Below are positions 1-59,760 of a stretch of 59,760 nt of DNA, in pieces. Source of the stretch: a virus (Duplodnaviria; Caudoviricetes); the IMG/VR virus record IMGVR_UViG_3300045135_000357, positions 1 to 59,760 of that record. One strand, written 5' to 3'. Under the pieces are notes generated by a model. The model was not told where the DNA came from and ran no database searches. It saw nothing but the letters and a program-made list of their open reading frames with translations. A program made the translations under genes and the position numbers. Numbering within the stretch: position 1 is the first letter of the stretch; every line of letters begins with the position of its first letter.

Positions 1-977
1 TTATACTGCGCCTTCAGCTGCGCATCAGTTTCGGCCTCGTTGTATAGCGATCTGATATATAGCGTCATCGCCAATGCCAGATGCAGACGCATCGGGTGTT
101 CCTCGTCGGCAATCACATCACGTGCTAGCTTGTCAGTGAACATATGCTGAATGTCCCAGCGCCCGATTAGTTCGACTTTGTTAACCTCGGCCCACTCGTT
201 CATCTGGTTGCGCATGTCGTTGCGATACGAGTAGTCCCGCACATGCAGCATGGGTGCGATAGCAAACGCCCAGTCACGGAAGGTTTCGATGTGTGGTTTC
301 AGCATAGCTTTGCGTTCTTTATCCACACGCACCTTCGGTGGCACGGGGACGTCGTTACCACCATCGACCCACTTGAACGCGCCGTCCACGAGACGGAATG
401 TAAGTGATGCCTTGTCGTCCTGTGCCATGGCCCACTCGGCGCGCTTCGTGACGTAGTGCGACTTCGGGCTTTGTTTGGCGTCTGCTTGTATCTTGTCATA
501 TAGCGCACGGGGCACGGTGCGGGTCTTGGCGAGGAAGTATGCCTGCCCACCTGCGCTGATGAAGTGCTTGCCGTTGCGGTTGATGAAGCTGAGACCCCAT
601 GGTGTATGACGCCACAGGAACGCGTAGCGCATGTTGTGTTGATACGGACCCCAACCGTTGCGCAGTGTAACTTCTTCTGTTCCGTCACGATACTTGCGCC
701 ACACGATGGGTGCATACTTCTCCATGTCCTTGAGTGTTGGTCGGTATTTCGCATTAAACCAGTGGTAGTGGCCGAAGTGCTCGTCACCCATGTGGTATCC
801 GTCCGACAGGGCGTAGCAGTAGTCGCTGATCTTGACGATGCGCTCATACTTGCGCTTGCGGTCGCCGATGGGGCGGATGTCCTTGCCCTTGTTAGCTGCG
901 CCGCCGAGCGGCTTGATGTTGTTATAGTATGCTTCGACTTCTGCGAAGTTGCTAAACGATGTAAATGTACGTGCCAT
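1..977 (-). CDS. Hypothetical early phage protein, 3'-truncated by the window edge (>=325 aa, MARTFTSFSNFAEVEAYYNNIKPLGG...)
   Basis: Not in the ORF track because it has no stop codon in the window. Manual translation from ATG at 977 stays open to base 1; SD AGGAG 6 nt upstream. Confidence 0.85.
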   Translation of the reverse strand, partial: MARTFTSFSNFAEVEAYYNNIKPLGGAANKGKDIRPIGDRKRKYERIVKISDYCYALSDGYHMGDEHFGHYHWFNAKYRPTLKDMEKYAPIVWRKYRDGTEEVTLRNGWGPYQHNMRYAFLWRHTPWGLSFINRNGKHFISAGGQAYFLAKTRTVPRALYDKIQADAKQSPKSHYVTKRAEWAMAQDDKASLTFRLVDGAFKWVDGGNDVPVPPKVRVDKERKAMLKPHIETFRDWAFAIAPMLHVRDYSYRNDMRNQMNEWAEVNKVELIGRWDIQHMFTDKLARDVIADEEHPMRLHLALAMTLYIRSLYNEAETDAQLKAQY

Positions 978-5195: not shown

Positions 5196-5408
5196 CTATC
5201 TTACCTTCTGGTTCAGGTGCTTGAGTTCTTCCTTGCGTGTCACGCGGGTGTAGTGCCCCTTCGGGGTCGGCACGATGCACCATCCCATCCGTGCTTCACG
5301 CGCTGCTTCTTCGCCGCAGGTGAGGCAGGTGTTGTAGCCGAGGGCCTTCCTTTTGGGGTGGTATGTCTCCCCGCACTCGATGCACTCTGGTTTGTCATGC
5401 TGTGTCAT
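5196..5408 (-). CDS. Small C4 zinc-finger protein (DksA/TraR-like finger)
   Basis: CIECGETYHPKRKALGYNTCLTC; SD AGGAG. Confidence 0.65.
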   Translation of the reverse strand: MTQHDKPECIECGETYHPKRKALGYNTCLTCGEEAAREARMGWCIVPTPKGHYTRVTRKEELKHLNQKVR

Positions 5409-5704
5409 GCCATTTCTCCTTTGTTAGTGTCGGCACTAACAGGCACCAACATCTCCACGTCGTAACAGTCACACGCGAGGACGCCGTATTCGGCAGCGTC
5501 GTGGTAACGCGCGAAGTATGTCTCGTCTTTGATTGTGCCGATCAATGGCGCTTGGCCGTGGCCGATGTCGCGGACCGTGTCCGCAAGCCAGCGTTCGAAG
5601 GCAGAGCCTTCTTCCTCGTCGAGGCCGCTGATGTCGCCGTAAAGCACAGGGCAAATCCAGTGGGCAGGCAGGCTCAGGGTGATGTGTTCGAAGCGCGTAG
5701 TCAT
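5405..5704 (-). CDS. Hypothetical protein (99 aa)
   Basis: SD AGGAG; ATGA overlap with the downstream gene. Confidence 0.75.
   Translation of the reverse strand: MTTRFEHITLSLPAHWICPVLYGDISGLDEEEGSAFERWLADTVRDIGHGQAPLIGTIKDETYFARYHDAAEYGVLACDCYDVEMLVPVSADTNKGEMA
5423..5440. promoter_or_regulatory. Conserved inverted repeat copy 5, GTTAGTG-tcgg-CACTAAC, inside the end of a CDS
   Basis: Encodes VSADTN; 2 nt upstream of SD AGGAG of the zinc-finger gene. Confidence 0.85.
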
Positions 5705-5745
5705 ATCTTATCTCCTATTTGTGGTCTCGGGGCTTAGCCCCGATT

Positions 5746-5763
5746 GTTAGTGTCGGCACTAAC
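5746..5763. promoter_or_regulatory. Conserved inverted repeat copy 6, GTTAGTG-tcgg-CACTAAC
   Basis: Intergenic; followed on the - strand by a second hairpin TCGGGGC-taa-GCCCCGA and then the SD. Confidence 0.85.
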
Positions 5764-5768
5764 ATGCC

Positions 5769-6020
5769 TTATTCCTGTGCCCAGCGTTTGGGCGTGTTGG
5801 GGTCGCGGCGCATGGGGTTGTTGCGCGTGGCGCGCTTGGGCGGGGTGATCGACGCATCCGCACGTTCTTCTCTGGCCCACTCGGCGCGGGTCGCCTTGCT
5901 GGTGCCGTGGTATCCGGCCTTGACGCGGTGGATGAAGAACTTGCCTTGGGCCTCGCGGGCAACAGCGGCACGATAGTGCATGGCGCAGAACTTGCGTAAT
6001 TCCTCTTTGGTCATGGTCAT
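5769..6020 (-). CDS. Hypothetical basic protein (83 aa, MTMTKEELRKF...)
   Basis: Start reassigned to ATG 6020: SD GGAG and ATGA overlap with the stop of 6017..6217. Confidence 0.7.
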   Translation of the reverse strand: MTMTKEELRKFCAMHYRAAVAREAQGKFFIHRVKAGYHGTSKATRAEWAREERADASITPPKRATRNNPMRRDPNTPKRWAQE

Positions 6021-6217
6021 TCTCCGTTCATGGCGGCTTCTAGGGCCAGCATTTCTCTGAGGGCAGCTTGGACGCGACGCGAGGCGGTATCGAACGCTTC
6101 GATCTCCAACGCGTCCTGCGCATCTTGCAACAGGGCGCGAACCCACGTTGATTTTGAGCGCACCAGCATTCGGGTTTCGGCGTGGTCCCAGTGGGCAAGT
6201 ATCTCAGCATCAGTCAT
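6017..6217 (-). CDS. Hypothetical protein (66 aa)
   Basis: SD AGGA; first gene after the 6314-6342 promoter. Confidence 0.75.
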   Translation of the reverse strand: MTDAEILAHWDHAETRMLVRSKSTWVRALLQDAQDALEIEAFDTASRRVQAALREMLALEAAMNGE

Positions 6218-6231
6218 ATCTTGTATCCTTT

Positions 6232-6248
6232 GTTAGTGCGGCACTAAC
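6232..6248. promoter_or_regulatory. Conserved inverted repeat copy 7, GTTAGTG-cgg-CACTAAC
   Basis: 2 nt upstream of SD AGGA of the 6217 gene. Confidence 0.85.
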
Positions 6249-6313
6249 AGTGCGGCGGGGTGGAAGCTGGTAGTGGTTAGTGTTAAGCGGTTAGTTTTGG
6301 TGGTATTTCTTAT

Positions 6314-6342
6314 AGAATACCGCAAGTGGACCACTATGTCAA
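6314..6342 (-). promoter_or_regulatory. Sigma70-type promoter TTGACA-N17-TATTCT
   Basis: Consensus -35, 17-nt spacer TAGTGGTCCACTTGCGG, TAnnnT -10. Confidence 0.8.
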
Positions 6343-6360
6343 ATGTTTGGCCTATCAGGC

Positions 6361-6657
6361 GGTGGTATCTGGTGGTATCTGGTGTAATGTCGCTGAATGT
6401 CGCAAGATGTCGTAGGTAGAGGGTCTGTAAGTGTATGAAAATAAAAGAATGTTCATAAATAATAAATGTTCCTAAAATTGTATACTCATGTTTGACGCGG
6501 ATATTTGGGGGGAATCGGCCCCAGCCCCTGCCTTAGTTTCGGTGCCTCAAAATCCGAGGACACTACCTTACCCCCCCGACATTAGGAACATTTCGTAAAA
6601 TCAATGGGTTACAAGGGGTCCTACCACCGACATTAGCGACATTATCACGGATACCAC
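6361..6657. repeat. Long imperfect inverted repeat with iterated ATGTCG/AATGTTC motifs; candidate replication origin
   Basis: Left arm ~6372-6454 mirrors right arm ~6585-6657; ATGTCG at 6387, 6397, 6407; CGACATT at 6577, 6628, 6637; IHF consensus WATCAA-N4-TTR at 6599-6611. Confidence 0.6.
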
Positions 6658-6721
6658 TATTTACCATTTCCTGATAGGCAGTTTTGGGGGGTCCGAACCC
6701 GTGCCTTCTCCCCGAACTATC

Positions 6722-7009
6722 AGGCGCTATGCAACTCTAAGAACTGGCATCGTTTGTTAGTGTCGGCACTAACAGTAAAACGGAACATTACTTTCTTATC
6801 AACGTATTAGCACAAACCGCTTATTGACGAGTTGTCAGGCGCTACGCAACTCTAGGAACTGGCATCAGTTGTTAGTGTAACACTAACAAAAAAAGCCCCG
6901 CGCGAGGCGGGGCAGTGGGCAGTGGTAGGCAATGTAGTAGAACCATAGCATAGTGCTAGGCGCTGCGCAACTCTAAGAACTGGCATCGTTTGTTAGTGCG
7001 GCACTAACA
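6722..7009. repeat. Three-copy 52-53 bp direct repeat with unique 62 and 69 bp spacers; each copy ends in the conserved inverted repeat (copies 8-10)
   Basis: AGGCGCTRYGCAACTCTARGAACTGGCATCRKTTGTTAGTG-N3-4-CACTAACA at 6722-6774, 6837-6888 and 6958-7009. Confidence 0.9.
6888..6913 (-). terminator. Intrinsic terminator inside array spacer 2
   Basis: GCCCCGC-ctcgc-GCGGGGC followed by T7 on the - strand. Confidence 0.75.
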
Positions 7010-7022
7010 AATCAGCGGGCAC

Positions 7023-7054
7023 AAAAAAGCCCCACCCGCCGGAGCGGATGGGGC
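7023..7054 (-). terminator. Intrinsic terminator after the 174-aa gene
   Basis: GCCCCATCCGC-TCCG-GCGGGTGGGGC then T6; UNCG-type tetraloop on the - strand. Confidence 0.85.
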
Positions 7055-7061
7055 GAAGATG

Positions 7062-7586
7062 TTATTTGACCATCTTGTTTAGGTCGCGCAGCGCTTTGAG
7101 GAAAGCCGCGGCGTCGAACGTCAGTGCCTCGGCACCTTGGACGATCTTTTCAATCGTCTCGATCTGGGCGCGGATTTTGTCCTCTGGCGACTTGGGCGGC
7201 TGCGGTGCGCGCTTGTCATCGACGCCCTCGCGCTTTTCCAAGGCGCGCTTGAAGTCGTTCCGGCGTGCGCCGATCTGTTGCTGCCAGTAGCGACGATCCG
7301 CCTTGTCAGCGTCGCCAAGCGACTTGGCAGGCGCGGCCAAAAGTTTCTGCACCCGCGCCGTGAAGCCCGCGACAATCGCCGCGTTGATCTTCTCGAAGAT
7401 TTCCTCGGTCGCGGTTGATTCCCCGCCCTTGGACTTGGGCGAGATGAAGTCGGTCGACTTGAAATCTGCCGCGTGCAGCTCATCCGCGGCGCTTGCCATC
7501 TTGCGGGCTGCGCCCTCGACGGCCGCGACGGCGGTGGTGATGACCTTGAAGGCCGCGACGGCCTGCTTTTCGTTTGCGTTTGCCAT
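7062..7586 (-). CDS. Hypothetical Ala/Lys-rich protein (174 aa), apparently monocistronic early gene
   Basis: SD AGGAG, strong codon bias, own candidate promoter and terminator. Confidence 0.85.
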   Translation of the reverse strand: MANANEKQAVAAFKVITTAVAAVEGAARKMASAADELHAADFKSTDFISPKSKGGESTATEEIFEKINAAIVAGFTARVQKLLAAPAKSLGDADKADRRYWQQQIGARRNDFKRALEKREGVDDKRAPQPPKSPEDKIRAQIETIEKIVQGAEALTFDAAAFLKALRDLNKMVK

Positions 7587-7644
7587 GATGTAACTCCTAT
7601 CTCATAGCTAATAAACCGGTCGAACCGTTCGATCCGGTAAGTAA

Positions 7645-7673
7645 GTTATGCCAAGTTATGGTGTGGTTTACAA
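7645..7673 (-). promoter_or_regulatory. Possible promoter TTGTAA-N17-CATAAC
   Basis: Correct spacing ~60 nt upstream of the 7586 start; both hexamers imperfect. Confidence 0.4.
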
Positions 7674-7727
7674 TAGATAACGCCCAAACGATAACGCCTG
7701 ATAGCGTAGCGTAGCGCGTCGAAACGT

Positions 7728-7746
7728 GTTAGTGAGCGGCACTAAC
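7728..7746. promoter_or_regulatory. Conserved inverted repeat copy 11, GTTAGTG-agcgg-CACTAAC
   Basis: 5-nt spacer variant in the divergent early/late intergenic region. Confidence 0.8.
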
Positions 7747-8055
7747 AAAACGCCAACAGCGCAACCATACCCCACCCCCACCCCCCGAATTGGTTTTGGG
7801 ACTCCGCTGACTTCCTATGTATTACTAATCCAGACGAACAATCCCGCCCCAAAACATTTCGACATAATTTTTCCTAATAAAAACAAAGGCTTACATTTTA
7901 CCCACCCACCGGATTCGGCGCGCTCAGGGAAACACCCCCCTTATGGGACCCACGGGTCCCTCCGACCCCCAAAAATTTCGCTATGCTACCGAGTCTTGCG
8001 AAATCACACCGTAAGAACTACACTGATGCCATCGGCCACTAGCCTGCGACATGAC

Positions 8056-8646
8056 ATGACAATACATCTGACCCCGGAAAGCGGGATACCGGCAGAGGGC
8101 CGGACCCCGAGAGTGGACTTAAAAGAGCGTGCAGCCGCGTGCGCACGCACGGTTGAGTTGTTGTCAGAACATGGTCTCTCCACTGTAAAGACCCGCGAGG
8201 ATGACGAGCTTGCTGCTCAGCTCTCCGTCGCCTATGCCGAAAACCCTGAACACGCATCTAAAGTCGTTACACCGAAGCGAGTGGCTACGATGACCCCCGC
8301 TGCGATCCTAGAGACGAACAAGATTCTCAAGGAGTACGGGCACCACGTCGTGGAGTCCGCTGTTACAGTGCGTAACCTCGTGACTAACAAACTCCTGCTG
8401 GAGACGGAGAACCCGGACCCTCGGGTGCGTATGAAGGCGCTGGAGCTGCTGGGTAAGATCAGCGACGTTGGGTTGTTCGCGGAGAAGTCCGAGGTGACTA
8501 TCACGCACCAGACTACGGACGATCTGAAGGAGAACCTGCGTAGAAAACTGCAGAAGCTAAGTCAGCCCGACGAGATCGAGGACGCCGTGGTCATAGACGG
8601 CGATGCCATCGACGTGGATAAAGAGCTTGGGTTCGACGATGAATAA
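8056..8646 (+). CDS. terS: Probable terminase small subunit
   Basis: Directly upstream of and overlapping terL; RMKALELLGKISDVGLF motif; start probably MTIHL at 8056 rather than 7726. Confidence 0.65.
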   Translation: MTIHLTPESGIPAEGRTPRVDLKERAAACARTVELLSEHGLSTVKTREDDELAAQLSVAYAENPEHASKVVTPKRVATMTPAAILETNKILKEYGHHVVESAVTVRNLVTNKLLLETENPDPRVRMKALELLGKISDVGLFAEKSEVTITHQTTDDLKENLRRKLQKLSQPDEIEDAVVIDGDAIDVDKELGFDDE

Positions 8647-16359: not shown

Positions 16360-16432
16360 GTTATGGTGTATTTTAGTGGCATCCCTGACAGCCGCATGGT
16401 GTGGCTGACTTGACCCACGACAGGAGATACAC

Positions 16433-16669
16433 ATGGGTACTACGACCTTTAGCGGTCCGGTTGTCTCGAACAACGGCTTCACCGGTGACGTAACCGGCGC
16501 AATCAAAGTTCCAACTTACACTGTTGCTACTGCACCTTCGGCTTCCACCGCTGGTGAAGGGACTGTCGTCTACGTCTCTGACGGCGCTGCAGGCTCCGCG
16601 ATTCTTGCGTTCTCGGATGGCACTAACTGGAAACGCTCCGATACTGGCGGCACCATCGCCGCATCGTAA
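16433..16669 (+). CDS. Small virion protein (78 aa), possible head fibre
   Basis: MGTTTFSGPV start; VYVSDGAAG...AFSDGTNWKR motif; SD AGGAG. Confidence 0.7.
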   Translation: MGTTTFSGPVVSNNGFTGDVTGAIKVPTYTVATAPSASTAGEGTVVYVSDGAAGSAILAFSDGTNWKRSDTGGTIAAS

Positions 16670-33602: not shown

Positions 33603-36600
33603 ATGCCACCACTTGTAGCAGCAGCCATAGGATATGGTGCAGGTGCCATCGCCGTATCTGCGGGCGCAACAGTTGGCGCGGCGGTAGTCGTCGGTGCGGG
33701 TACCGCAATCCTAGCGCATGAATCCGGCGCAGCGGACTGGGTTTTCGACAACATAGTTGAGCCGATAGGTGAGGGTATACAGGACGTACTAACATCTGAC
33801 GTTGGTCGGGGCCTCCTTAAAGCAGCCGCTGCAATTACCCCGGGTATGCAGTGGGCTATCCCGCTCATTGACGCCGCAGGTGCTCTTGCAGAGGGTGGTA
33901 ATATCGGGGACGCGCTGAAAGCCGCCGCGGTTTCCTATGTTGGTGGTAAACTTGGTAGTGCTATTGGCGAGTACGCTGGGCAAGTTGCTGTCGAAGCTAC
34001 AGGTTCGCAGGTCGTGGGGCAGATCGTCGGGGGCGGCGCAGGGAGAGCGACCGTTGCCCTTGTTATGGGGCAAGACCCCGTAGAGGCATTCCTCCAAGGT
34101 GGGTTAAGTGCAGGGCTTAGCGCTGCCGCTGGCTGGATCGAGCAGCAGGGCATCGAATCCGGTGCGGGTCAGACGTGGTCTAACCTGCCGGACGCTGCAC
34201 AGAACGTCATCACGGCGTCGCTTAGCGCTGCGTTGTCTGGGGAAGACATAACTGAAGAGCTTATCTGGAACGCCGTTCTGTCTTCGGAGGTAGTATCTAA
34301 AACGGTTAGCGGGTTCCTAGAGAACAATACCGGGCTCAATGATGGTCAGATAGCTGCGCTGACTATGGGTATCCAGCGTACCGCCGCAGTTGCGTTTAGT
34401 GGTGGGGACGTATCGCAGGAAATCCTTAACCAGATCGACAACTACGCAAACAATGCGTTTACTGAGTGGTTTGACAATACCGAGGCTGGTATTGCGGTTA
34501 ACACCACCATGGACAAGATCACCGGGGACTACCAGCGGGTAGCCGCCCAAACTGAAGCCATGGATGCGAAAGGTGCTGAATACAACGAGGCGTTTGCGGC
34601 ATACGAAGCTACGGTAACGGCTATCAACGAGGGTGTGGCTAAGAGTACCGAACTGCAAACCGCATACGAACGGGCACTCCAAAACTTCCAAGCGAACGAA
34701 TCGCAAGAGAACGCAGACGCGCTATCGGCAGCACTCGATGCGTATAACGAACACAATACCGCCTTTAACGAGCGGTACGAGAACACGCTGAAACCGAACC
34801 TAGACTATTACGAGGGGCGGATACCCGAGATCGAAGCTGAGTTCGCCGAGCTATCGGATGAGTACGGTGCGCTCGTGGCTGATCTGACGATAACCACAGA
34901 GCAGCTCGGCGATGAGCTAACTCCGCTGTACGGAGAACTGGATCGTACATTCGTGCAGTTTATGAACCCTGACTTTGACGAAGAGGTGTATCGGCAGGTT
35001 GCTGGGCTAGACGCCGATGAGGATGCTTATCTGCACTGGCTAACCACTGGTAAGGAGCAGGGGCTACCTACGAACGCCGCTGACGCCAAGCAGGCGTACA
35101 ACACCAAGTTCACCCAAATCCTCCAGACGACGCTCGAACGTAACGGGCTGACTCTAGGCGACATAAGTAAGACGCAGTTCGACGCGTTTGTAGCGGGTAT
35201 TAGCGAGCAGTACCCAGACTACAAATCTATCGACATGGCACCGCAGTACGAGATCGCCGATCAGTTCGCGGAAGACTACGCTCTGTTCCTGCGGATGCAG
35301 CAGGCGTCGCGGGACGAGGCAGCGGATATACAAACAGTTCTTGATGACTGGGCATACCTGCAGGGAAACGAGGAGGAGCAAGCAGAGTTACGCGCACAGG
35401 CTGGTGCGATACAGGATATTATCGATAGCTACCAAATTGCAAAAGACGACCCGCCCACGACCCCTGCGGCGGAAGGCGAGATCGAGACCTTGCAAACCCT
35501 GTTTGCGGCTTACGATTACGCAAAGGCAAACGACCTATCGTTCTTTGGAGACATTACCCCCGAAATCGTTGAACTCTTAGCGCTTGTCGGTGTCGACGAC
35601 GCTCTTGTGGGGGAGCCCCTAACTGATTCGGACCTTACTGCGCTGCGCTATAGGCTGAGCCAGCTTACCGGGGGCGTAATCACCGACACCATGACGCGCG
35701 CCTTATCCGCGGCCGGTGTCGATGGCTTTATGGAGGGGGAGTCCCTAATTGATTCGGACATTGCTACCCTACAGGGCAGCTTGGACCGGCTTGATGCGGG
35801 TGTAATTACCCCAGAGATCGCTGAACTTCTACGTAATGTAGTAGGTATCGACGACTTCTTCGTCGGGGAAAATCTATCACCGGATGATATTGACGCACTG
35901 CAAAACAGGGTGATCGCACTTACCCAAGTCGCAGATTTAAATGATGTAACTTTCGAAGATGCAGGCGTATCCGATGTAAACATTGGGAGTGGTATAGCGC
36001 GCGCCACTTACGATCCTGAATCTGGGCTGTGGGACTGGGACGAAATAGGCTTAAGCACGGGGTTCTGGTCCCCGGAACTAGGCCGCATGGTGCGGCAATT
36101 TGAATACTATAAATCCGAAGGCGAACCGACGGGGGACTTTATCCAAGGAGAGGGTCTCCCACCCGGAGTGGGTATCACGCCGGGCCTCACGCTCACCGAC
36201 GAGAAGGTGTATTATTACCAAGACGCTATCACTGGTGAGTGGATTACGAAGCCAGCCGCTGACGGTGTTAGTATTTCTTTCGGAACTGGCTCGGCGTACC
36301 AATTTGACACCCCCTTACAAGGTGTGCTTGAGACGACGGGCGTCGGGCAAACACTTGCTGACCTGAGAGAAACTGCACCGGTAGCGTTCATCGAAGAGAC
36401 CGCTAAACTCTCGGCTGACGGTGCCGCAGCTATCGCAGGCATCGTTGGCGACGCAGTAGTTGACTTCTCACGTAATGTTGTCGAGTACGCCGATAACAGC
36501 GACACCGCCGTAGGCGATGGGTTCCTTAACGGTGCTGGTCTTGTCCTAGAGGCAGGCGGCGAGTTGCTTGAGACGTTTAACAACATGTTGTTACTGGCCA

Positions 36601-39600
36601 ACATTAACCCGGCCAGCACTCCTCTAGGCGCATTTGCGCGTGATATGGTCGAGCTAGGTGGCGACACCAAAACGGTAGAGTGGCAAGAAGCTGTTACTCG
36701 AATGAACGACCGCATGTCGGAAGGTGAGGGTTGGGGTAAAGTCGCGGCAGTTTGGGGTGGGTTCCAAGAAGCCCCGGTGCAGTTTGTTGCTGAGATCATA
36801 GGTAAAGAAATCCTGCAGGAGATTCCAATTCTTCTCGCAAGCGGGGGTACGGGTAATATTACGAAGCGGTTGTTGTCTGAGGCAGGCGAACAAACTGCAC
36901 AGGTGATAGCACAGCGCGCGGCTCTTGGTACGGGCGCGGCTCTCGATCTCGCCGAATCCTTCGGCGGCGCAGCTGGTTCGGCGTATGACTCTGCGTACGC
37001 TACGGCACTTCAGTCGGGTATGTCTGAGACCGAAGCTGAATCCTACGCCCGTGACCTTGCTGTGTCGGCGGGCATGATCGGTGCGACCACGACACTTATT
37101 AGCATGGGTGTTATGGATGGTAACGCGTTCGAAAAAGCTATCTTTGCGCGGGATGATAGCGGTGTAACCGCACAGGCATTCGATTGGCTTACCCAGCGTG
37201 TAGCTGAAGGGGCCGAGGTGTCGTGGAAAGAAGGGGTACAGGAATCCATTGAGGAGGGCCTGCCGACTCTCTTCTCTGAGACAGTGCTTACCCAGCTGGA
37301 CCCGGGACGGGATGTGCTCGGCGCTGTCGCACAGGCAGCAACTCTTGGTGCAATCGCTGGGTCCGGTACGGCGGGCGGTATTTACACTGGGGACGCAATC
37401 GCAGACGCACTGATCCGCATGAATCCACAAGTTCGTACGGCTATTGTGAACGGTGGCTCCGACCCAGAAGGTGTCAAGCAGGCGCTCGCAGACCTCGGTA
37501 TTGACGATGCGCTCGTTGAAGCTGGGGTCGACCCGACGCTCGTGCAGAACAACCTACTCAGTGTAGTAAACAGCGATTACCACAGCACGGGTGACATCTC
37601 CCGTGCGTTCTCTGCGCATCCTGACTTTGTAGTTGGTAACGCTGACATCCTTAACGGGGTGTTGAACTCCGTAGGACAAGACGTCACCACGTATGTGAAC
37701 ACATATGTCGATCAGCGCTACGTCGATATCGACGAGGTAAAGGCTGCTGCCGCTGCAGAAGGCGTCACGCTCACCGACGAGCAAGCCGCGGCTATGGTCA
37801 CTCAGACGACTGACCCCGAGGCTACCCAAGGTGTACTGTATTCGATCCAGCAGACATACGATCCGCAGGCGGTAACCGAGCAAGAAGCACGAGACGCGTT
37901 TGCGGCTCAAGGGTTTAACCCCTCTGACGAGCAAGTGCAGCAGTTTGTTGCGGAAGGCGACGAAACTACGCTGCTTGACGAGCTGTCCCAATACGTTGAC
38001 GCTAACCAAGTCACGGAAGCAGAAGCCCGGCAGTACTTCGCAGATATTGGGTATGATCCAACCGATGAGGAAGTTGCGCAGTTCGTGGGCCAGCAGGCCG
38101 AGGACGAAGCACAGCAGGCAGTCGCTGACTATGTAGACCCCCGTACTGTCGACGCCGAGGAAGTGCTCGCCGCGTACCAAACACTGGGGCTCACACGCCC
38201 AACAGATGCCGATATTCAGGAGCTGGTAGGCCAGTACATGGAGACCGAGCTCGCAGGGCGTGCAGAAGAATACCTGCCGACTGCGCGGTATAACGCGATC
38301 CTTGCCGCTATAGACAACTTTACTGGTGAAGTCGGTGTATCTGACGAAGTGCAGGCCGCACTAGATGTTGTCAAAGCTGACATCATGGAGTCTTTCGGTG
38401 AGCTTGGCCAAGAAGTCGTTGCAATCGACGAGGCTACGCAAAACCTCGAAGCCATAATCGGCAGCATCGCATCTGGCGAAGAAGAAGCCTCTGGCTTGTA
38501 TGCCTATATCGACGACGCGATTGCGACATTGACCGCCGCTGGACTGACCAGTGACGAAGTAGACGCTGCGATCTCTGATATCGTCGGTGCACCCGCGACG
38601 ACCGATGCAGATGGAAACGAAGTTGCTGCCACAGGTATCTACGCGACACTTGCGGAGCTGGGCACGACCGTCGATAACCTCAGCGACCTGAGTACCGAGG
38701 ATATTAAAGGTATTGTCGCAGATGCAGTCGGCGATCTGAACAACCTCAGCACCGAAGATGTGCGGGCCATTGTAACTAACGCGCTGAGCGGCTTTGAGAA
38801 CCTTAGCGAAGAAGACGTACAAACTGTTGTCGGCGATATCATCGGCGCACCTGCAACAACCGATGCAGATGGAAACGAAGTTGCTGCCACAGGTATCTAC
38901 GCAACTATTGAAGGCGCGGTTGGCGATCTGAACAACCTCAGCGCCGCAGACGTACAAGGTATTGTGTCCGAGGCACTGAGCGGCCTTGAAGACAGTATTG
39001 GGATCGACGTACAAGGTGTTGTCGACGATATCGTCGGTGCGCCTGCAACAACTGATGCGGACGGAAACGAAGTTGCTGCTACAGGTATCTACGCAACTAT
39101 CGAAGATGCAGTCGGCAACCTGAACAACCTCAGCACTGAAGACGTACAAGGCATCGTGTCAGATGCACTAAGCGGCTTCGATACCCTAAGCGAAGAAGAC
39201 GTTACGTCTATCGTCGACGGCATTGTCAGTGACCTAAATAATCTAGGTACCACTGACGTTGAGACGATTGTAGCTGACGCGCTGAGTGGTCTTGAGAACC
39301 TTAGCACAGCTGACGTACAAGCTGTTGTCGGTGATATTGTCGGTACCCCTGCTACCGAAGGTGTGGAGTCGACGGGTGTTTACGCGGTTATTGATAACCT
39401 CAACAACCTCAGCGAAACCGATGTAGACAGTATCGTTAACGCGATTGTCGGTACCCCTGCAACCGAAGACGCCGAGGCTACTGGCCTGTATGCTACAATC
39501 GGCGACCTTAACAACATCAGTGAAGAAGATGTTACGGCTATCGTAACTGACGCGCTGAGTGGGCTTGAGAGCCTTAGCGCAGACGACGTTGCATCGGTCG

Positions 39601-51800: not shown

Positions 51801-52037
51801 TCATAAAGTCCTCCAAACACGTACCCCAAATTTACCATCCTCTATGCGCGGCTGGGATTTGAACTTCCAACCGCGCTTTCGTGCCAGCTTATCTACCTGT
51901 TTCTTGGCTTCTTCGGTGTTGATGCAGGGGATGAATACGGACATATCCACCCCCATTGCGTCCCAATCGACCGATATGGTCACCCCGTCAGGGTACAAGT
52001 CTCCGATCTTTGGCACCTTAGTCATCTTCATCCCCAT
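51801..52037 (-). CDS. Small hypothetical protein ending GVRVWRTL
   Basis: SVFIPC...VRVWR pattern; overlaps the primase stop; exact start uncertain (52037, 52031 or 52025). Confidence 0.7.
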   Translation of the reverse strand: MGMKMTKVPKIGDLYPDGVTISVDWDAMGVDMSVFIPCINTEEAKKQVDKLARKRGWKFKSQPRIEDGKFGVRVWRTL

Positions 52038-54840
52038 GCAACCCGTCGAACTTAACCTCAATGGTGTCCTGTGGTGGCAGGTTCAGGTGTGTACCCTTGG
52101 TGATGCGTATCCGCTTCTTCTTCGCGCCCATGGTCTCGATCAGGTGCGATAGGCAGGCACCGAAGTCGATCTGCTGTTCAGTGCACCAAGCCTTGAACGG
52201 CTTTACGAGGATGAACGCGATCTTGGTATCGGTCTCATACCGGGCAACCAGCTTGCTGCGTGGGTTAACCTCGGGGACGATAAGTGAGTCCAGTCCGTCA
52301 GACCCGACACCGCGCAAGTCGCTGGTGCTCTTGATCCACAGCACGTTGCCATGGTGTTCACTGAAGAAGTCAGAGACGATCTGCGACACACTAGAGTTCA
52401 TGTCATCTGCATCGTTTCTGTTTTGCTTCAACAGCTTCACACAGAACTGAAACAGTTTGGCCATGTCGTAGTTAACCAAGCCGATCTTGGTGGCAATCAT
52501 ACCTGCCAATAGTGAACGTGAGATAAGTTCTGACCAGAAGCGATGCGGCTGCGACAGCCCCGCGGCCTCGTCTACACGCCGCTGCACCTTCTTGTACATC
52601 TCAGCGTACTGCTCCTTGTTCTTCATGTAATGCTGCAGGAACCCGATACCGGCGTGGCCGTAGTGCGATATGACCTCGATAGCGAAGTTATCCGTCATCG
52701 CCTTGTCACCGGCGTTGTCGAAATACTTGTCAACACGTGCCTGCAAAATCCGCATAGCCTCAGCTTTCGGCATCGCTTTGTACAACGCAGCACGGTCGAG
52801 CAGGCTGGTGTTCCCAGTGGACATAGACAGCAATCGCCATGTACCACCCCGAGCGCGCTCGACGTTGCCGCCGCCACCCATGCGGCCCTTCTGGCTACCA
52901 CGAGGAACAGCGTACGCGAAGTCCGACACGTCCTTGGGGCGCATATTGGTAAGTTCGTCTAGCACGTAGGGCAGACTGCGGTAAGTCTCGGCGCGCAGCA
53001 TTCTGAAGTTAGCGGTGTCCGACTCCCCAAGAATAAGGTGTTCTGGTGACCCCCATACGGACAGCCCGAGCAGGGTGGCCGTGGTCTTACCGAGACCTGA
53101 CTCTTTACTGTGCAGGTGTAGGATTGCACCGTGTATCGGCGAATTGTGCATCAGCGCCGAGCCGAAACTCGCGCAGACCACGAGCTGATACAGCTCCATG
53201 CCTTCTTTGTTGAAGAACTCCGCGTTCTTCTTCCAGCCGTCTAACGTACCAACAGGTTCGAATGCGGGGAATAGCGCAGCGGTGTTAGTCGACGGGGGGT
53301 TGAAGTCGATGCGGTCCGCGAAGATTTCTTGGTTCCCAAGGATGAACGACGTGGCCTCGGGTGTAGTCCATCCAAACTGATTGTGTGCCTTATCGGCTGC
53401 GTTCTTTGCTTGCAATTCTTCTACCCATCTCAGCGTATATGACATTAGTTCATCCAAGGCTTTGCCCGATGCGGTCACGCCCCTAGAGGACACCGCTTTA
53501 CGGAACTCCTCTTTAGACGTGATAGCCACTTGCGGGACTGTGAACTCACGCACCCCGTCTCTCGGGAGGTGCAGGCGGAATACCAACGCATCTTGCTCTC
53601 CGTCATGCACACGGCGCACTGCATAGATGTCGTTGTGGTATATGCACTTCTCGACCGGATCACCGTCAGCATCTACACTGCGGATGTAGACACCCCCACC
53701 AGACCCACGAAAGTACGGGCGCGGGAACACAGGAATTACGTATTCTTGTTCTGGTGCGTTCGGCAGCGTATTCGACGGTGCGACTACGTGGTTGTCTTCC
53801 TCAGTAGCCTCTTTGTATTTACCACCGAGGACAATGGGTGATTTGATCTTACCCCACAGCGGACACCCGGTGCAGACGTCAGGGTTATATTCGTCGAACG
53901 TGGTGCACAGGTACGGACCTTTGATGCGATCCATCTTGTCGTACATCTCGTCCGGCGTGAAGTCAGGGTGCTTGCTAGAGATACGCGCCGCTGCCTTGTC
54001 CGCATCGACGCAGTGCTTGGCAATCGACAGCCCTGCGCGCCACATGGGTTCTGACATGGTCTCTTGGTTACGGTAGATATAGGCCAGCTGCATACAGCCT
54101 TTGCCTTTACCCGTCTTCACCATGATGTCTTTGAAGAAGTACTCGCGGCTCCCCATCAGTGCGTCCATCACTGAGTTGGGCCCGTTTATAGCGGGAACTT
54201 TGACGGGAACTGGTATCGGTTCAGCGCCGAGCAGCTCCGCAAACCGGTCAAGCGAGATCGGCTTTACAGCCTCAAACCCTAGCACTTTGACTTCTTTTGG
54301 TGGGTTGTCCTTGTGGTTATGTGAGCCCGGCATACGTAGCACACGCGCCGCGTCGGCGGTCACGGCAGTGTCGGCCTTGAACTTGTGGTGCTTGCACACG
54401 GCCTTCAGGCGGTCAGCAACCGGGGCCCATTCGTCAAGGGTCACGTCCTCATCGAGCGGCCAGTATACGTGGATACCACGCCCCGAGTTGACGAGTACCG
54501 GCTTGGGTAGCTTAACAGCCTTACAGAACTGCTGCAGTTCTTTCAGTGCGGTGTTCTGGTCAGGGAACTTCTTGGGGTCATCGGGACCGCAGTCTAAGTC
54601 CAAATAGAACGAGCGCTTGCGCGCTACGTTGTCAGCTTCGCGTGAGCCAGCTTCGCCGAAACTAGCCAGTGCATAGTATGTGTTGTTTCCGTTTGCATCC
54701 ATCTCGTGAACGGCGTCCATCAGATGATCTACGCTGTCATAGAACTTCTGCTTCTTCCGACCTGTTTCTGCATGGATTGCAAGAACGCAGTACCACCCCG
54801 ATTGCGGCAAAACGCTCTGTAAAAATCTTCTTGTTTCCAT
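52018..54840 (-). CDS. Primase-helicase (AEP/RepB-like N-terminus, DUF927-like region, P-loop C-terminus)
   Basis: YLDLD, NSGRGIHVYW, RVLRMPGSHN, Cys cluster CTGCPLW, Walker A SGLGKTT, Walker B VLDE. Confidence 0.85.
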   Translation of the reverse strand: METRRFLQSVLPQSGWYCVLAIHAETGRKKQKFYDSVDHLMDAVHEMDANGNNTYYALASFGEAGSREADNVARKRSFYLDLDCGPDDPKKFPDQNTALKELQQFCKAVKLPKPVLVNSGRGIHVYWPLDEDVTLDEWAPVADRLKAVCKHHKFKADTAVTADAARVLRMPGSHNHKDNPPKEVKVLGFEAVKPISLDRFAELLGAEPIPVPVKVPAINGPNSVMDALMGSREYFFKDIMVKTGKGKGCMQLAYIYRNQETMSEPMWRAGLSIAKHCVDADKAAARISSKHPDFTPDEMYDKMDRIKGPYLCTTFDEYNPDVCTGCPLWGKIKSPIVLGGKYKEATEEDNHVVAPSNTLPNAPEQEYVIPVFPRPYFRGSGGGVYIRSVDADGDPVEKCIYHNDIYAVRRVHDGEQDALVFRLHLPRDGVREFTVPQVAITSKEEFRKAVSSRGVTASGKALDELMSYTLRWVEELQAKNAADKAHNQFGWTTPEATSFILGNQEIFADRIDFNPPSTNTAALFPAFEPVGTLDGWKKNAEFFNKEGMELYQLVVCASFGSALMHNSPIHGAILHLHSKESGLGKTTATLLGLSVWGSPEHLILGESDTANFRMLRAETYRSLPYVLDELTNMRPKDVSDFAYAVPRGSQKGRMGGGGNVERARGGTWRLLSMSTGNTSLLDRAALYKAMPKAEAMRILQARVDKYFDNAGDKAMTDNFAIEVISHYGHAGIGFLQHYMKNKEQYAEMYKKVQRRVDEAAGLSQPHRFWSELISRSLLAGMIATKIGLVNYDMAKLFQFCVKLLKQNRNDADDMNSSVSQIVSDFFSEHHGNVLWIKSTSDLRGVGSDGLDSLIVPEVNPRSKLVARYETDTKIAFILVKPFKAWCTEQQIDFGACLSHLIETMGAKKKRIRITKGTHLNLPPQDTIEVKFDGLHGDEDD

Positions 54841-55800: not shown

Positions 55801-56133
55801 TTATGCGTCTTCGTCTGCATCGAAATCAAATTCGAGTTGGTCTTCGTCATGGGTTACTTCGCCCATTGACAGTACTGAGCCTTCCACACCGGTCACTTCT
55901 ACTGCGACGTCTGCGGATGCTGCTTCTTCCTCTTCTTTCTGCATCGCCATAAGCGCTTCGGCTACGGCAGGGCGATTGAAGCGGTAGGTGTTGCCCAGCT
56001 TGATGTAGGTGTTCTCGGGGATGTACCCCTGCCGCACCCATGCACGGATCGTGGACACCGACACGCAGAAATACTGCGATAGGTTCTCGATGGTCACAAA
56101 CGGGCTTTTCTCTTTCACGACTTTGTCGGTCAT
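55801..56133 (-). CDS. Excisionase/MerR-like HTH protein with acidic tail
   Basis: TIENLSQYFCVSVSTIRAWVRQGYIP...KLGNTYRF. Confidence 0.75.
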   Translation of the reverse strand: MTDKVVKEKSPFVTIENLSQYFCVSVSTIRAWVRQGYIPENTYIKLGNTYRFNRPAVAEALMAMQKEEEEAASADVAVEVTGVEGSVLSMGEVTHDEDQLEFDFDADEDA

Positions 56134-58419: not shown

Positions 58420-59084
58420 CAGTTTGCTCCATTGTGGGGACATTCAGTTACAGGGCAGTGGCGCTTACACAAGCCGCTTGGCCGTGGGTTCCACACCTCT
58501 ACCTCGAACGCTTTCTTCATGGCACCATGCTTAGCCAACCACTTCCGCCACAGTTCGTCCTTATCAAACTCCGTGTAACTTCCTTTGACAAGGGCAGTAG
58601 CAATCACGAACAGTAGTCCTGCTTTGATACGCTTGACCTGCGGGAAGTGTGCGAACACAGTCAGAGCCATCAACTCCAGCTGACCCTTGTCGGCATACTT
58701 GGCTGACTTACCAGTCTTGTAGTCTACCACCCATGCCAGATCGCCGTCGATGATGATGAGGTCGGCAATACCCCGGAACCACACGTCCTTCGCGAAGAAG
58801 TCGCAGGGTTCTAGGTTCTCCGTTAGACCCATCTTACGTTCGCACAGCTTCTCCCCCGGCTTCGCTTTGAGCCGCTCGATTGCCTTGGTCGCGAAAGAAA
58901 ACTTGGCAGGGATCGGCGTGTCATCACGTACGAAATCCTCTGCCGCCTTATGAAACTCAGTCCCGTACCGCATCGCCTCAGTCTCCTGAAACGGAAACTG
59001 CTTGAGGACGTTGACGTGGTAAAACTGCTTAGGACAGGTCTCGAAGGCTTTCAATCGACTGTAGGACCAAGGCGCTGCGCTCAT
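58419..59084 (-). CDS. PD-(D/E)XK exonuclease (RecB/Cas4-like)
   Basis: WSYSRLKAFETCP, GTEFH, RGIADL, VDYKTGK, QLELMA, C-terminal Cys cluster. Confidence 0.88.
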   Translation of the reverse strand: MSAAPWSYSRLKAFETCPKQFYHVNVLKQFPFQETEAMRYGTEFHKAAEDFVRDDTPIPAKFSFATKAIERLKAKPGEKLCERKMGLTENLEPCDFFAKDVWFRGIADLIIIDGDLAWVVDYKTGKSAKYADKGQLELMALTVFAHFPQVKRIKAGLLFVIATALVKGSYTEFDKDELWRKWLAKHGAMKKAFEVEVWNPRPSGLCKRHCPVTECPHNGAN

Positions 59085-59760
59085 TCACATTCTCCGTAAC
59101 TTTTTGCTGTTCCGGCTTCGCAGTCCACGGGCAGACCTGCTGCCCAATCCGGTGTCCACCGCATCGACTCTTCTACGTAAGCCACTGCGTCGGCCACTTC
59201 GGCGTCGGGTACACAGCATACGATGGAGTCATGAACAGTTAACACTACTTTGTATCGCTTGGCAATCCGTAGCATCTGTTCGCCAATGATGCACCTTGCA
59301 ACGCCTTGGCACACGTTCTCGACCACTTTACCGCCGTAGATTTTGTTGTCTCCCGAGCGGACCTTGTAATAATACTGTGGCCCCTTCTCTTCCTCGACTG
59401 CGAATAGGCCGTGGTAATACATGGGTAGGCCACTTGGCAGGATGATGGCTTTCTTATTGGGGTCTACCCCCAGCACACCTGCGCGACCTAAGTTTAGTTT
59501 GTCACCCTGTGCCATATAGCGGAGCATGTTCTGTGCCGACCGCCACAGCTGACTAATCTTCCAGTTGGTGTCACGGTAGATGTTGATGACCCGCCGTGCC
59601 TCGTCCAACTCCATGTCAAAGCCGAACGTCTTTAGCTGCGCTTGGAACTTGACGGCACCCATGCCGTAACCTGCACCGAGGATTGTGGTCTTACCCACGA
59701 ACCGCTGGTCTTTGGTCACGTCGTCTACGTCCACACCGTAGATGCTAGACGCCATCTTCT
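59081..59760 (-). CDS. Family A DNA polymerase, C-terminal part (5' end outside the window)
   Basis: Motif B RFVGKTTILGAGYGMG, ENVCQGVAR, motif C TVHDSIV; frame open to the window end. Confidence 0.9.
   Translation of the reverse strand, partial: KMASSIYGVDVDDVTKDQRFVGKTTILGAGYGMGAVKFQAQLKTFGFDMELDEARRVINIYRDTNWKISQLWRSAQNMLRYMAQGDKLNLGRAGVLGVDPNKKAIILPSGLPMYYHGLFAVEEEKGPQYYYKVRSGDNKIYGGKVVENVCQGVARCIIGEQMLRIAKRYKVVLTVHDSIVCCVPDAEVADAVAYVEESMRWTPDWAAGLPVDCEAGTAKSYGECE

Follow-up and report, generated by a model that had tools for sequence, protein, structure and literature searches.

A tandem array of palindrome-and-box elements beside an origin-like, early-control region of an uncultured marine phage

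RESULTS

Three composite units downstream of a terminator

IMG/VR virus record IMGVR_UViG_3300045135_000357 (Duplodnaviria; Caudoviricetes) is the nearly complete genome of an uncultured marine phage, with an estimated completeness of 96%; we analyzed the whole record, a stretch of 59,760 bp that is called the window below. At positions 6722 to 7011, it carries an array of three composite units, each consisting of a palindrome and a 29-nt box that are both read on the minus strand. A repeat search placed these 54-nt units at 6722-6775, 6837-6890, and 6958-7011, spaced by 115 and 121 bp; the copies measure 52 to 54 nt and are 74 to 87% identical to the reference copy. An earlier note, made from the letters of the DNA alone, had described three repeats here at positions that agree with ours to within 2 nt. 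It had also reported that the units are read on the minus strand, that they contain a palindrome recurring across the genome, that TAGAGT lies about 16 nt past this palindrome, and that two terminators flank repeat 3. Each of these observations was recovered: TAGAGT stands 16 nt past the palindrome in all three units, and a scan found both minus-strand terminators, with stems at 7054-7029 and 6913-6895, each followed by a T run. The statement that no open reading frame (ORF) covers the region needs amending, as a minus-strand ORF of 44 amino acids (aa), 6852..6986, overlaps part of it. Read along the minus strand, the array and its upstream border hold the following features.

7586..7062, minus strand: gene of 174 aa, upstream of the array, with its own terminator.
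7023..7054, minus strand: intrinsic terminator of the 174-aa gene; 11-pair stem (7054-7029) with 9 GC pairs, then TTTTTT.
6989..7011, minus strand: palindrome/hairpin of repeat 3; core at 6992-7008, 3-nt center, stem extendable to 10 pairs.
6959..6987, minus strand (read 6987 to 6959): box of repeat 3, 29 nt.
6888..6987, minus strand: repeat-3 unit, a candidate small noncoding RNA; box, 45-nt body, and terminator, 100 nt in all.
6869..6889, minus strand: palindrome/hairpin of repeat 2; core at 6871-6887, directly past the T run of the unit's terminator.
6838..6866, minus strand: box of repeat 2, 29 nt.
6776..6837, minus strand: stretch of 62 nt between box 2 and palindrome 1, with one iteron-like AATGTTCC at 6789-6782.
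6756..6773, minus strand: palindrome/hairpin of repeat 1; 4-nt center.
6723..6751, minus strand: box of repeat 1, 29 nt; no terminator follows, and the box leads into the iteron region.

The repeats are real and are conserved in related uncultured marine phages. In two runs of DNA contigs, the repeats are points at which assemblies break, and a single contig runs unchanged from 6731 to 6996; the runs that contain this stretch are seawater metagenomes. When compared with phages and plasmids by BLAST, the region from 6000 to 8000 and one unit gave either no match or a match to the terminator alone, no cultured phage in the collection searched matched the unit, and a generic terminator was the sole match of the spacers. 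Rfam returned no family for the units, with the whole window searched at the gathering threshold and 6200-7800 searched by E-value; the best E-value matches in 6200-7800 were driven by the terminator and fell far under the gathering score. A scan of bacterial and archaeal genomes for a palindrome arm plus the box core yielded, among the matches listed, at least 120 loci, none with the full palindrome; because all of these loci are chance matches, the scan gives no clue to the host. A full-text literature search for the letters of the palindrome retrieved unrelated papers alone, one for the names of the cultured relatives gave nothing of relevance, and neither the palindrome nor the box was met with in these searches.

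A one-directional palindrome before early genes

The palindrome, GTTAGTG-N3-5-CACTAAC, is present in 12 copies in the window versus 0 expected (search pattern GTTAGTG-N1-8-CACTAAC), starting at 994, 2724, 4101, 5062, 5423, 5746, 6232, 6756, 6871, 6992, 7728, and 58123. The early module and its borders, 9.4 kb in all, contain every one of the 12, and the 50 kb of late genes contain none. Most of the 12 stand 11 to 40 nt ahead of a start codon. On the minus strand, eight lead into AA, a Shine-Dalgarno sequence, and, within 3 to 60 nt, an early-gene ATG. The other four are the three array copies and one copy in the divergent region that heads the late operon. Three of the 12 have, in their 5' arm, a TAG that doubles as the stop codon of the upstream ORF.

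Statistics were compiled from 23 loci with at least three exact copies (IMG/VR relatives and the window), which together contain 125 distinct palindromes. The center measures 3 nt in 107 of them, 4 nt in 15, and 5 nt in 3. A Shine-Dalgarno sequence and a start codon (of an ORF of at least 40 codons) are found no more than 70 nt away from 60 of the 125 palindromes, versus 224 of 920 random positions in the same loci, and 38 palindromes stand 11 to 23 nt before a start codon. The base after the palindrome is A in 56 of 58 oriented copies, whereas the mirror position upstream has T in 25, so that the palindrome is direction specific; this asymmetry fits action on the transcript or on one strand. 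Among 22 near-miss palindromes, variation falls at the two inner pairs, the outer 5 bp are fixed, and there are no compensated double changes, so that the sequence GTTAG...CTAAC itself is selected, as for a site read by a protein. Dozens of related contigs, divergent in the rest of their intergenic sequence, have the same stem. The conserved layout described below places the palindromes inside transcripts, in leaders and between cistrons, and we take them not to be promoters themselves.

A cultured distant relative, Planktothrix phage Pag-Yong1, has a palindrome of its own, GGTTCAG-N-CTGAACC, with a 1-nt center. It precedes at least 12 early genes (locus L336, 600-9850) and stands ~10 to 15 nt before many of their Shine-Dalgarno sequences. 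The divergent control region of this phage (locus L337) contains GTATGACA iterons, and no box array was recognized in Pag-Yong1.

Just past the palindrome at 7728-7746, the plus strand of the window has a C-rich run, CCATACCCCACCCCCACCCCCC (7747-7790). Relatives carry a similar run past the equivalent palindrome heading their late genes, and it may be a late-control or packaging signal.

The 29-nt box in the window and its relatives

Relatives were found by exact-pattern scans of IMG/VR and JGI metagenomes, in which many single matches are due to chance; 17 of 65 metagenome loci have the palindrome. The 22 distinct arrays, with 54 boxes, give the consensus GATRCCAGTTCYTaGaGtnGCGynGmGCC. Positions 1, 2, and 5 to 10 were fixed by the search pattern, and conservation is strong at free positions, where C11 is kept in 50 of the 54 boxes, G17 in 51, G20 in 52, C21 in 53, G22 in 49, G25 in 48, and G27 in 52. 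Within the window, the 23-nt core of the box has three matches in 59,760 bases (both strands, up to three mismatches) versus none in 100 shuffles, and it is present in the array alone.

Nine arrays have two boxes, ten have three, and one has four; the two single-copy arrays are a contig-edge fragment (L301) and a lone core (L109). Boxes are spaced 49 to 155 bp apart, with modes near 102 and 120 and no helical phasing, which does not fit the earlier suggestion that the units are themselves iterons, expected to be ~17 to 22 bp long and closely and regularly spaced. All boxes, in the window and in the relatives, are on one strand, in the direction of the early genes. A palindrome ends 4 to 6 nt upstream of 37 of the 54 boxes and is missing from the other 17, and in 13 of the 22 arrays the first box, directly past the terminator T run, has no palindrome. 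Thus, palindrome and box are separable elements.

The earlier note had called the TAGAGT within the box a TAnnnT-like hexamer. Its conservation across the relatives is not that of a sigma-70 -10 hexamer: the last T is kept in 35 of the 54 boxes and the G at the fifth position in 51. A scan found no sigma-70 promoter at the boxes, and the hexamer 17 nt upstream of TAGAGT in the units is CACTAA. Consensus sequences of promoters of the sigma-54, sigma-32, sigma-28, extracytoplasmic function (ECF) sigma, and T7 types were compared with the box by eye, and none fits consistently. A stem within the box, proposed by RNAalifold, was also set aside; it is kept in the window's clade alone and is broken, by eye, in the other clades.

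The box core recurs outside arrays in some relatives. The pattern GAnRCCAGTT has 6 copies in genome G002 and 5 in G004, on one strand in each, and the reversed control pattern has 0. At seven of the eight secondary sites printed, the order is palindrome, terminator-like GC stem-loop, a 7- to 13-nt spacer that is A/C rich or T rich, core, Shine-Dalgarno sequence, and ATG; the core lies 3 to 6 nt (5 to 6 nt in most) from the Shine-Dalgarno sequence of the gene downstream of polA. The eighth site (L118) stops at a contig edge. Judged by this order of elements, the secondary sites are places where a new expression unit begins. The core GATRCCAGTTCYT is also conserved at the nucleotide level in a homologous ORF of L340 (G002) and of L138, near 8702, in different reading frames, which suggests a nucleic acid signal embedded in the coding sequence.

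A shared layout around an origin-like region

Along the early strand, the relatives have a common order: the stop codon of the upstream gene, the terminator followed by TTTTTTTGTGCC, the boxes, direct iterons, a G+C patch, an AT-rich stretch, inverted iterons, a sigma-70 promoter close to consensus, and the first early gene, preceded by a palindrome and a Shine-Dalgarno sequence. This layout is shared by all 10 printed IMG/VR loci as far as each reaches (L015 stops within the iteron region) and by 14 metagenome relatives that reach past the boxes. Three metagenome stretches are partial, with L285 and L330 ending and L301 beginning within the array. In the window, the terminator at 7054-7023 closes the transcription unit upstream of the array; it is the relatives' equivalent of this terminator that TTTTTTTGTGCC follows. 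The first box lies 4 to 25 nt past the upstream terminator in several lineages, a distance that leaves no room for a separate promoter, so that the box itself must carry any start signal. The last box, also in several lineages, runs straight into the first iteron. Past the array, the window has the following features.

6576..6643, minus strand: direct iteron-like sites, two pairs, AATGTCGS / AATGTTCC.
6434..6493, no strand assigned: AT-rich patch, 82% A+T over 60 nt, between oppositely oriented iteron sets.
6350..6403, plus strand: inverted iteron set, AATGTCGC twice on the plus strand and GATACCAC twice on the minus strand.
6314..6342, minus strand: sigma-70-type early promoter, TTGACA-17-TATTCT, 10 of 12 consensus matches.
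6232..6248, minus strand: leader palindrome of the first early gene, 14 nt upstream of the ATG.
6217..6017, minus strand: first early gene, with the palindrome in its 5' leader.

Of 21 iteron-like matches in the whole window, 8 fall within 6200-7100, and a 45-nt inverted repeat (I1) has its arms at 6350-6394 and 6635-6679. The sequence of the iterons differs by lineage, being AATGTTCG in most relatives and AATGTCGS/AATGTTCC in the window. The region has the form of an iteron-type origin, with clustered direct and inverted repeats, an AT-rich stretch, and replication genes nearby. From this form, we infer that 6250-6720 is a replication origin and early-control region, in which the AT-rich patch is likely the unwinding element. 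An association of the repeats with an origin, one of the alternatives in the earlier note, also fits, since the array abuts the iterons and the AT-rich patch. At the place of the early promoter, a TTGACA-like -35 element, 17 nt, and a TAtAaT-like -10 element are found in 9 of the 9 loci that cover it. Because this near-consensus sigma-70 promoter is so conserved, early transcription probably uses the host polymerase.

A terminated unit of constant length headed by box 3

The terminator inside the array has a 7-pair GC stem at 6913-6895 and a T7 run at 6894-6888, and it closes the unit headed by box 3. This terminated unit is 99 to 100 nt long in all eight distinct versions (the window, L324, L005, L007, L334, L276, L294, and L295); a ninth match, in L280, is without a palindrome and unrelated and was excluded from the alignment. 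The eight versions have a mean column identity of 82%; their first 22 nt differ at columns 4 and 11 alone, and the body has conserved single-stranded motifs near columns 38 to 42 and 54 to 58. The terminator stem occurs in three versions that differ in sequence and keep their complementarity. L115 and L294/L295 have two terminated units each.

Comparison of the window with L324 gave 83% identity for the stretch behind box 3 (shuffled maximum, 66%), 62% behind box 2 (shuffled maximum, 59%; weak orthology), and 55% behind box 1 (shuffled maximum, 62%), the last being no better than shuffled. On the strength of the first two values, the spacers are orthologous and the box-3 stretch is the most constrained. 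The spacers had been called unrelated, which is true among themselves, but each has a counterpart in L324. Copy number varies among relatives, from 2 to 4. The orthologous spacers do not support the spacer turnover that the earlier note had proposed to look for.

Two features looked for in a small-RNA gene are found: a 3' intrinsic terminator, at repeat 3 only, and conservation of sequence and length beyond that of the neighboring noncoding DNA (83% versus 62% and 55%). It is plausible from these sequence features that the repeat-3 unit is a small RNA of ~100 nt. The earlier proposal of short noncoding RNAs thus keeps its footing for this unit, with its terminator and its 99 to 100 nt in eight of eight versions, but not in its guide-like form.

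Genome organization and neighboring genes

The record ends fall inside the gene for a family-A DNA polymerase (polA), with pieces at 3..977 and 59081..59755 on the minus strand; ~0.6 kb of polA is apparently absent from the record in comparison with relative L095, consistent with the completeness estimate. The early/replication module occupies the minus strand from 7586 down across the record ends to 52018. Its products include a prim-pol/DUF927 primase-helicase, an SNF2 helicase, a PD-(D/E)XK nuclease, a Gam-like protein, an excisionase-family helix-turn-helix (HTH) protein, an AAA ATPase, a DUF2201/VWA protein, and a DUF3150 protein. The HTH protein is encoded at 55801..56133, and small early proteins are encoded at 6217..5196. 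Packaging and virion genes are on the plus strand from 7726 to 51713. Two of these genes bear on the readings discussed below.

52018..54840, minus-strand module: AEP-type primase-helicase (prim-pol plus DUF927).
7726..8646, plus strand: ORF resembling the small terminase subunit (TerS) by a weak PHROG match, ~0.7 kb from the array.

The large terminase subunit (TerL) is ~46% identical to those of phage 023Pt_psg01 and Pelagibacter phages HTVC027P and HTVC023P, the nearest cultured phages, which are distant; TerL and the DUF3150 protein also match Pag-Yong1. Among the small early proteins, searches of NCBIfam, Pfam, and PHROGs gave no nucleic-acid-binding candidate but the excisionase-family HTH protein. 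No repressor or integrase was recognized in the phage, and a tRNA/tmRNA scan found none.

The virion module includes two giant ORFs, 33603-41336 (2577 aa) and 44856-51713 (2285 aa). The 2285-aa protein has an LPD39 domain and DarB-like (antirestriction) matches; the 2577-aa protein has no family or solved-structure match and a weak, sub-threshold Pfam holin match alone. No phage or virion RNA polymerase was found in the two ORFs, which have no PDB relative and no DxDGD motif. In the head-gene region, 16383-16435 (plus strand) matches the Rfam Mu-gpT-DE RNA with 70.5 bits versus a gathering score of 49. Between the 174-aa gene and the late genes, the divergent region has, at 7671-7716, the direct repeats CAATAGATAACGCC / CAAACGATAACGCC on the plus strand and a triple CGCTA run on the minus strand. 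Contigs in two DNA runs join 7543 to 7725, omitting 181 bases; a related strain apparently lacks the beginning of the 174-aa gene and some of the divergent region.

DISCUSSION

Proposed short transcription units beside a likely origin

The repeats, their conservation, orientation, and position, and the terminators are established directly. As to what the array does, we tentatively favor, with less than even confidence, the reading that the boxes head short minus-strand noncoding transcription units next to the origin and that one such unit is a terminated small RNA. A role in RNA or transcription is favored because the boxes have a common orientation, the first box is near a terminator, the terminated unit has a fixed length, and the core heads another expression unit elsewhere. 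The array, which consists of two to three (once four) composite cis elements across this family of uncultured marine phages, would form the arm of the origin and early-control region that is distal to the promoter. Transcription would start at or in each box. Repeat 3 would then give a functional small RNA of ~75 to 100 nt that ends at the terminator at 6913-6888, and repeats 2 and 1 would give unterminated transcripts into the iterons and the AT-rich origin, which could activate or prime the origin or add to early transcription. The palindrome would put these units under the control of a phage factor that acts at early-gene starts.

Several results weigh against transcription units headed by the boxes. 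The best-kept positions of the box (G15, G17, G20, C21, G22, G25, and G27) do not form a -10/-35 pattern, and a sigma-70 scan of 5900-7900 found no promoter at the boxes, its sole match being the minus-strand early promoter at 6342-6314. Scans of ~37 ORFs for families, PDB sequences, and the DxDGD motif revealed neither a phage RNA polymerase nor a sigma factor. At the secondary sites, the core is only 5 to 6 nt from the Shine-Dalgarno sequence, which is tight for a promoter, and some of the relatives' core copies are inside ORFs. For the candidate RNA, RNAalifold found no conserved fold beyond the terminator and a weak box stem, single-sequence fold z-scores of -0.35 to -1.6 are unremarkable, and pairing with 50 phage translation-start regions was no better than that of shuffled controls. 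Terminated units are missing from the clades of L048, L131, and L108.

Other readings of the array

The main alternative, which we consider possible but less likely, is that the array consists of accessory sites of the origin that act at the DNA level. The boxes, and the palindromes extruded as hairpins once the DNA is unwound into single strands, would be binding, loading, or priming signals for the primase-helicase or another initiator, an arrangement akin to a cis-acting replication enhancer or to the ssi signals discussed below, and the terminators would merely keep transcription out of the origin. The neighborhood speaks for it: the array abuts the iterons and an AT-rich patch with inverted iterons, an iteron-like site lies in the repeat-2 spacer, the last box meets the first iteron in several lineages, and the phage encodes a prim-pol plus DUF927 helicase protein. 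The box is conserved without covariation, and the 22 near-miss palindromes include no compensated change, which fits sites read by a protein. A precedent by analogy is offered by ssiA and ssiB at oriV of RSF1010, where, according to the excerpted text of PMC8567376, a hairpin and a conserved single-stranded flank, 40 nt in all, stand beside an iteron/AT-rich origin and are read by a dedicated AEP-like primase; our phage likewise encodes an AEP-type primase-helicase, and 37 of the 54 boxes have a comparable form, while 17 have no palindrome. However, ssiA and ssiB are single copies on opposite strands, an inverted pair, according to the same text (PMC8567376), whereas the phages have 2 to 4 tandem copies on one strand, some without a hairpin and one with a terminated unit. 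DNA-level sites also sit poorly with first boxes that have no palindrome in 13 of 22 arrays and with spacings of 49 to 155 bp without helical phasing, and they leave unexplained both the fixed length and conserved body of the terminated unit and the core copies 5 to 6 nt before Shine-Dalgarno sequences in relatives. A rather doubtful alternative at the RNA level has a phage protein, a translational repressor or a hairpin-specific endoribonuclease, that recognizes the hairpins at all early cistrons; the array, transcribed by read-through, would supply small RNAs whose hairpins titrate this protein, or RNAs that begin with the box and are released by cleavage at the hairpins. Such a protein would suit palindromes that stand 11 to 23 nt before start codons or have a Shine-Dalgarno sequence and start within 70 nt, with a center that varies from 3 to 5 nt and an A that follows, and the box occupies in the array the place that the ribosome-binding site has at genes. 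But the terminators before and inside the array make a single precursor transcript unlikely, family scans of the ORFs identified no RNA-binding or nuclease candidate, the uncompensated near-misses with their fixed outer 5 bp look like DNA operators, and the analogous palindrome of Pag-Yong1, with its 1-nt center, is hard to fold as a 7-bp hairpin.

Three further readings have little to recommend them. Direct repeats might be binding sites of the small terminase (pac or cosB-like), and the TerS-like ORF is close to the array in a record that is cut in polA, as for a permuted headful genome; a role in packaging is nevertheless very unlikely, since a divergent gene with its terminator stands between the array and the terminase genes, iterons and early promoter accompany the array in all relatives, and core copies occur elsewhere in the relatives' genomes. 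Still less probable are mini-ORFs or leader peptides. Each box of the window does contain an ATG, from which repeats 1 and 2 would encode MPV(L/P)RVA and stop after 7 codons, and the ATG in the repeat-3 box opens the 44-aa ORF (6852..6986). We rejected this reading, as no Shine-Dalgarno sequence precedes the ATG and the ATG is missing from many relatives' boxes (T at position 3 in 42 of 54, G at position 4 in 29 of 54, with GATA, GAAA, GAGA, and GAAG variants). The outward form of the array, repeat-spacer-repeat with a hairpin in each repeat, recalls a CRISPR-like mini-array or guide-RNA cassette in which repeats are handles and spacers are guides, and the guide-like option of the earlier note was of this kind. 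We give it almost no credence: near-identical repeats of ~23 to 47 nt would be expected, while the units measure 52 to 54 nt and are 74 to 87% alike; an intrinsic terminator between repeats 3 and 2 argues against one precursor transcript; the spacers are orthologous in L324 (83% and 62%) and match phages and plasmids at the terminator alone; the palindrome stands by itself at nine other places, mostly gene starts; and no cas-like protein is among the ORFs scanned.

A more speculative combination, which we regard as rather improbable, is that palindrome and box form a punctuation system of the phage on one strand, with a protein that reads the GTTAG...CTAAC hairpin, in RNA or in unwound single-stranded DNA, at every early cistron. 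The origin units would serve either as priming signals for the AEP-type enzyme or as small RNAs, excised or bound by this protein, that act as a timer or sponge linking early translation to the onset of replication. If true, such a system would be an undescribed one, common to a widespread family of uncultured marine phages.

Relation to known elements

Short terminated transcripts or tandem promoters directly beside an origin are exemplified by the oop RNA of phage lambda and the primary origin of T7. Their promoters are known sigma-70 or T7 promoters, whereas the array's own start signal is putative. Tandem small-RNA paralogues with a common conserved 5' part are represented by PrrF1 and PrrF2. 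Stoperators are asymmetric 13-bp repressor sites of temperate phages, present in many copies in intergenic gaps and in one orientation. The palindrome resembles them as a short, apparently protein-read site with many copies along operons in one orientation relative to transcription; it differs in having a palindromic form with a variable center, and the phage has no recognized repressor or integrase.

Stoperators of Cluster A mycobacteriophages are named in PMC3203893, the excerpted text of which also describes the start-associated sequences (SAS) and extended SAS (ESAS) of Cluster K mycobacteriophages, elements of unknown function for which a part in translation initiation is suggested. SAS and ESAS are short, occur in the nonstructural half of the genome in one orientation, and lie directly upstream of many start codons, and ESAS are inverted repeats with a variable spacer that are conserved across subclusters (PMC3203893). 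The palindrome behaves in the same way, in one orientation upstream of many early-gene starts. However, SAS include the Shine-Dalgarno sequence (PMC3203893), whereas the palindrome of our phage lies upstream of an ordinary one; the two are not similar in sequence, and they belong to unrelated phages with unrelated hosts. A tandem noncoding array beside an origin is not described for Cluster K in that text (PMC3203893). As composite cassettes, the units resemble the PeSLs of T4-type phages, which are repeated and intergenic, combine a stem-loop with an expression signal, and end at the Shine-Dalgarno sequence and start codon of the next gene, as given in the excerpted text of PMC2839356. Unlike the units in the window, which have no sigma-70 match, PeSLs carry a demonstrable sigma-70-like promoter and their stem-loop terminates transcription (PMC2839356); here the palindrome is followed by A rather than by a T run, the box array heads noncoding DNA, no sequence is shared, and the phages are unrelated. 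By analogy, the array is best filed with known kinds of elements, start-associated phage repeats and origin-proximal small transcription units.

Implications for the phage family

The control region of this phage can now be read as an early promoter of the host type, a likely origin that has inverted iterons, a 100-nt candidate small RNA, and two cis elements specific to the family, and the guide-RNA or CRISPR-like reading of the array is removed. Both elements are found in dozens of related contigs that have diverged in their other intergenic sequence. Palindrome and box together provide a simple sequence tag by which phages of this group can be recognized, and their origins located, in metagenomes. 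The strict conservation of both elements implies phage-encoded factors that read them, and finding those factors would reveal how this group of phages times early expression and replication.

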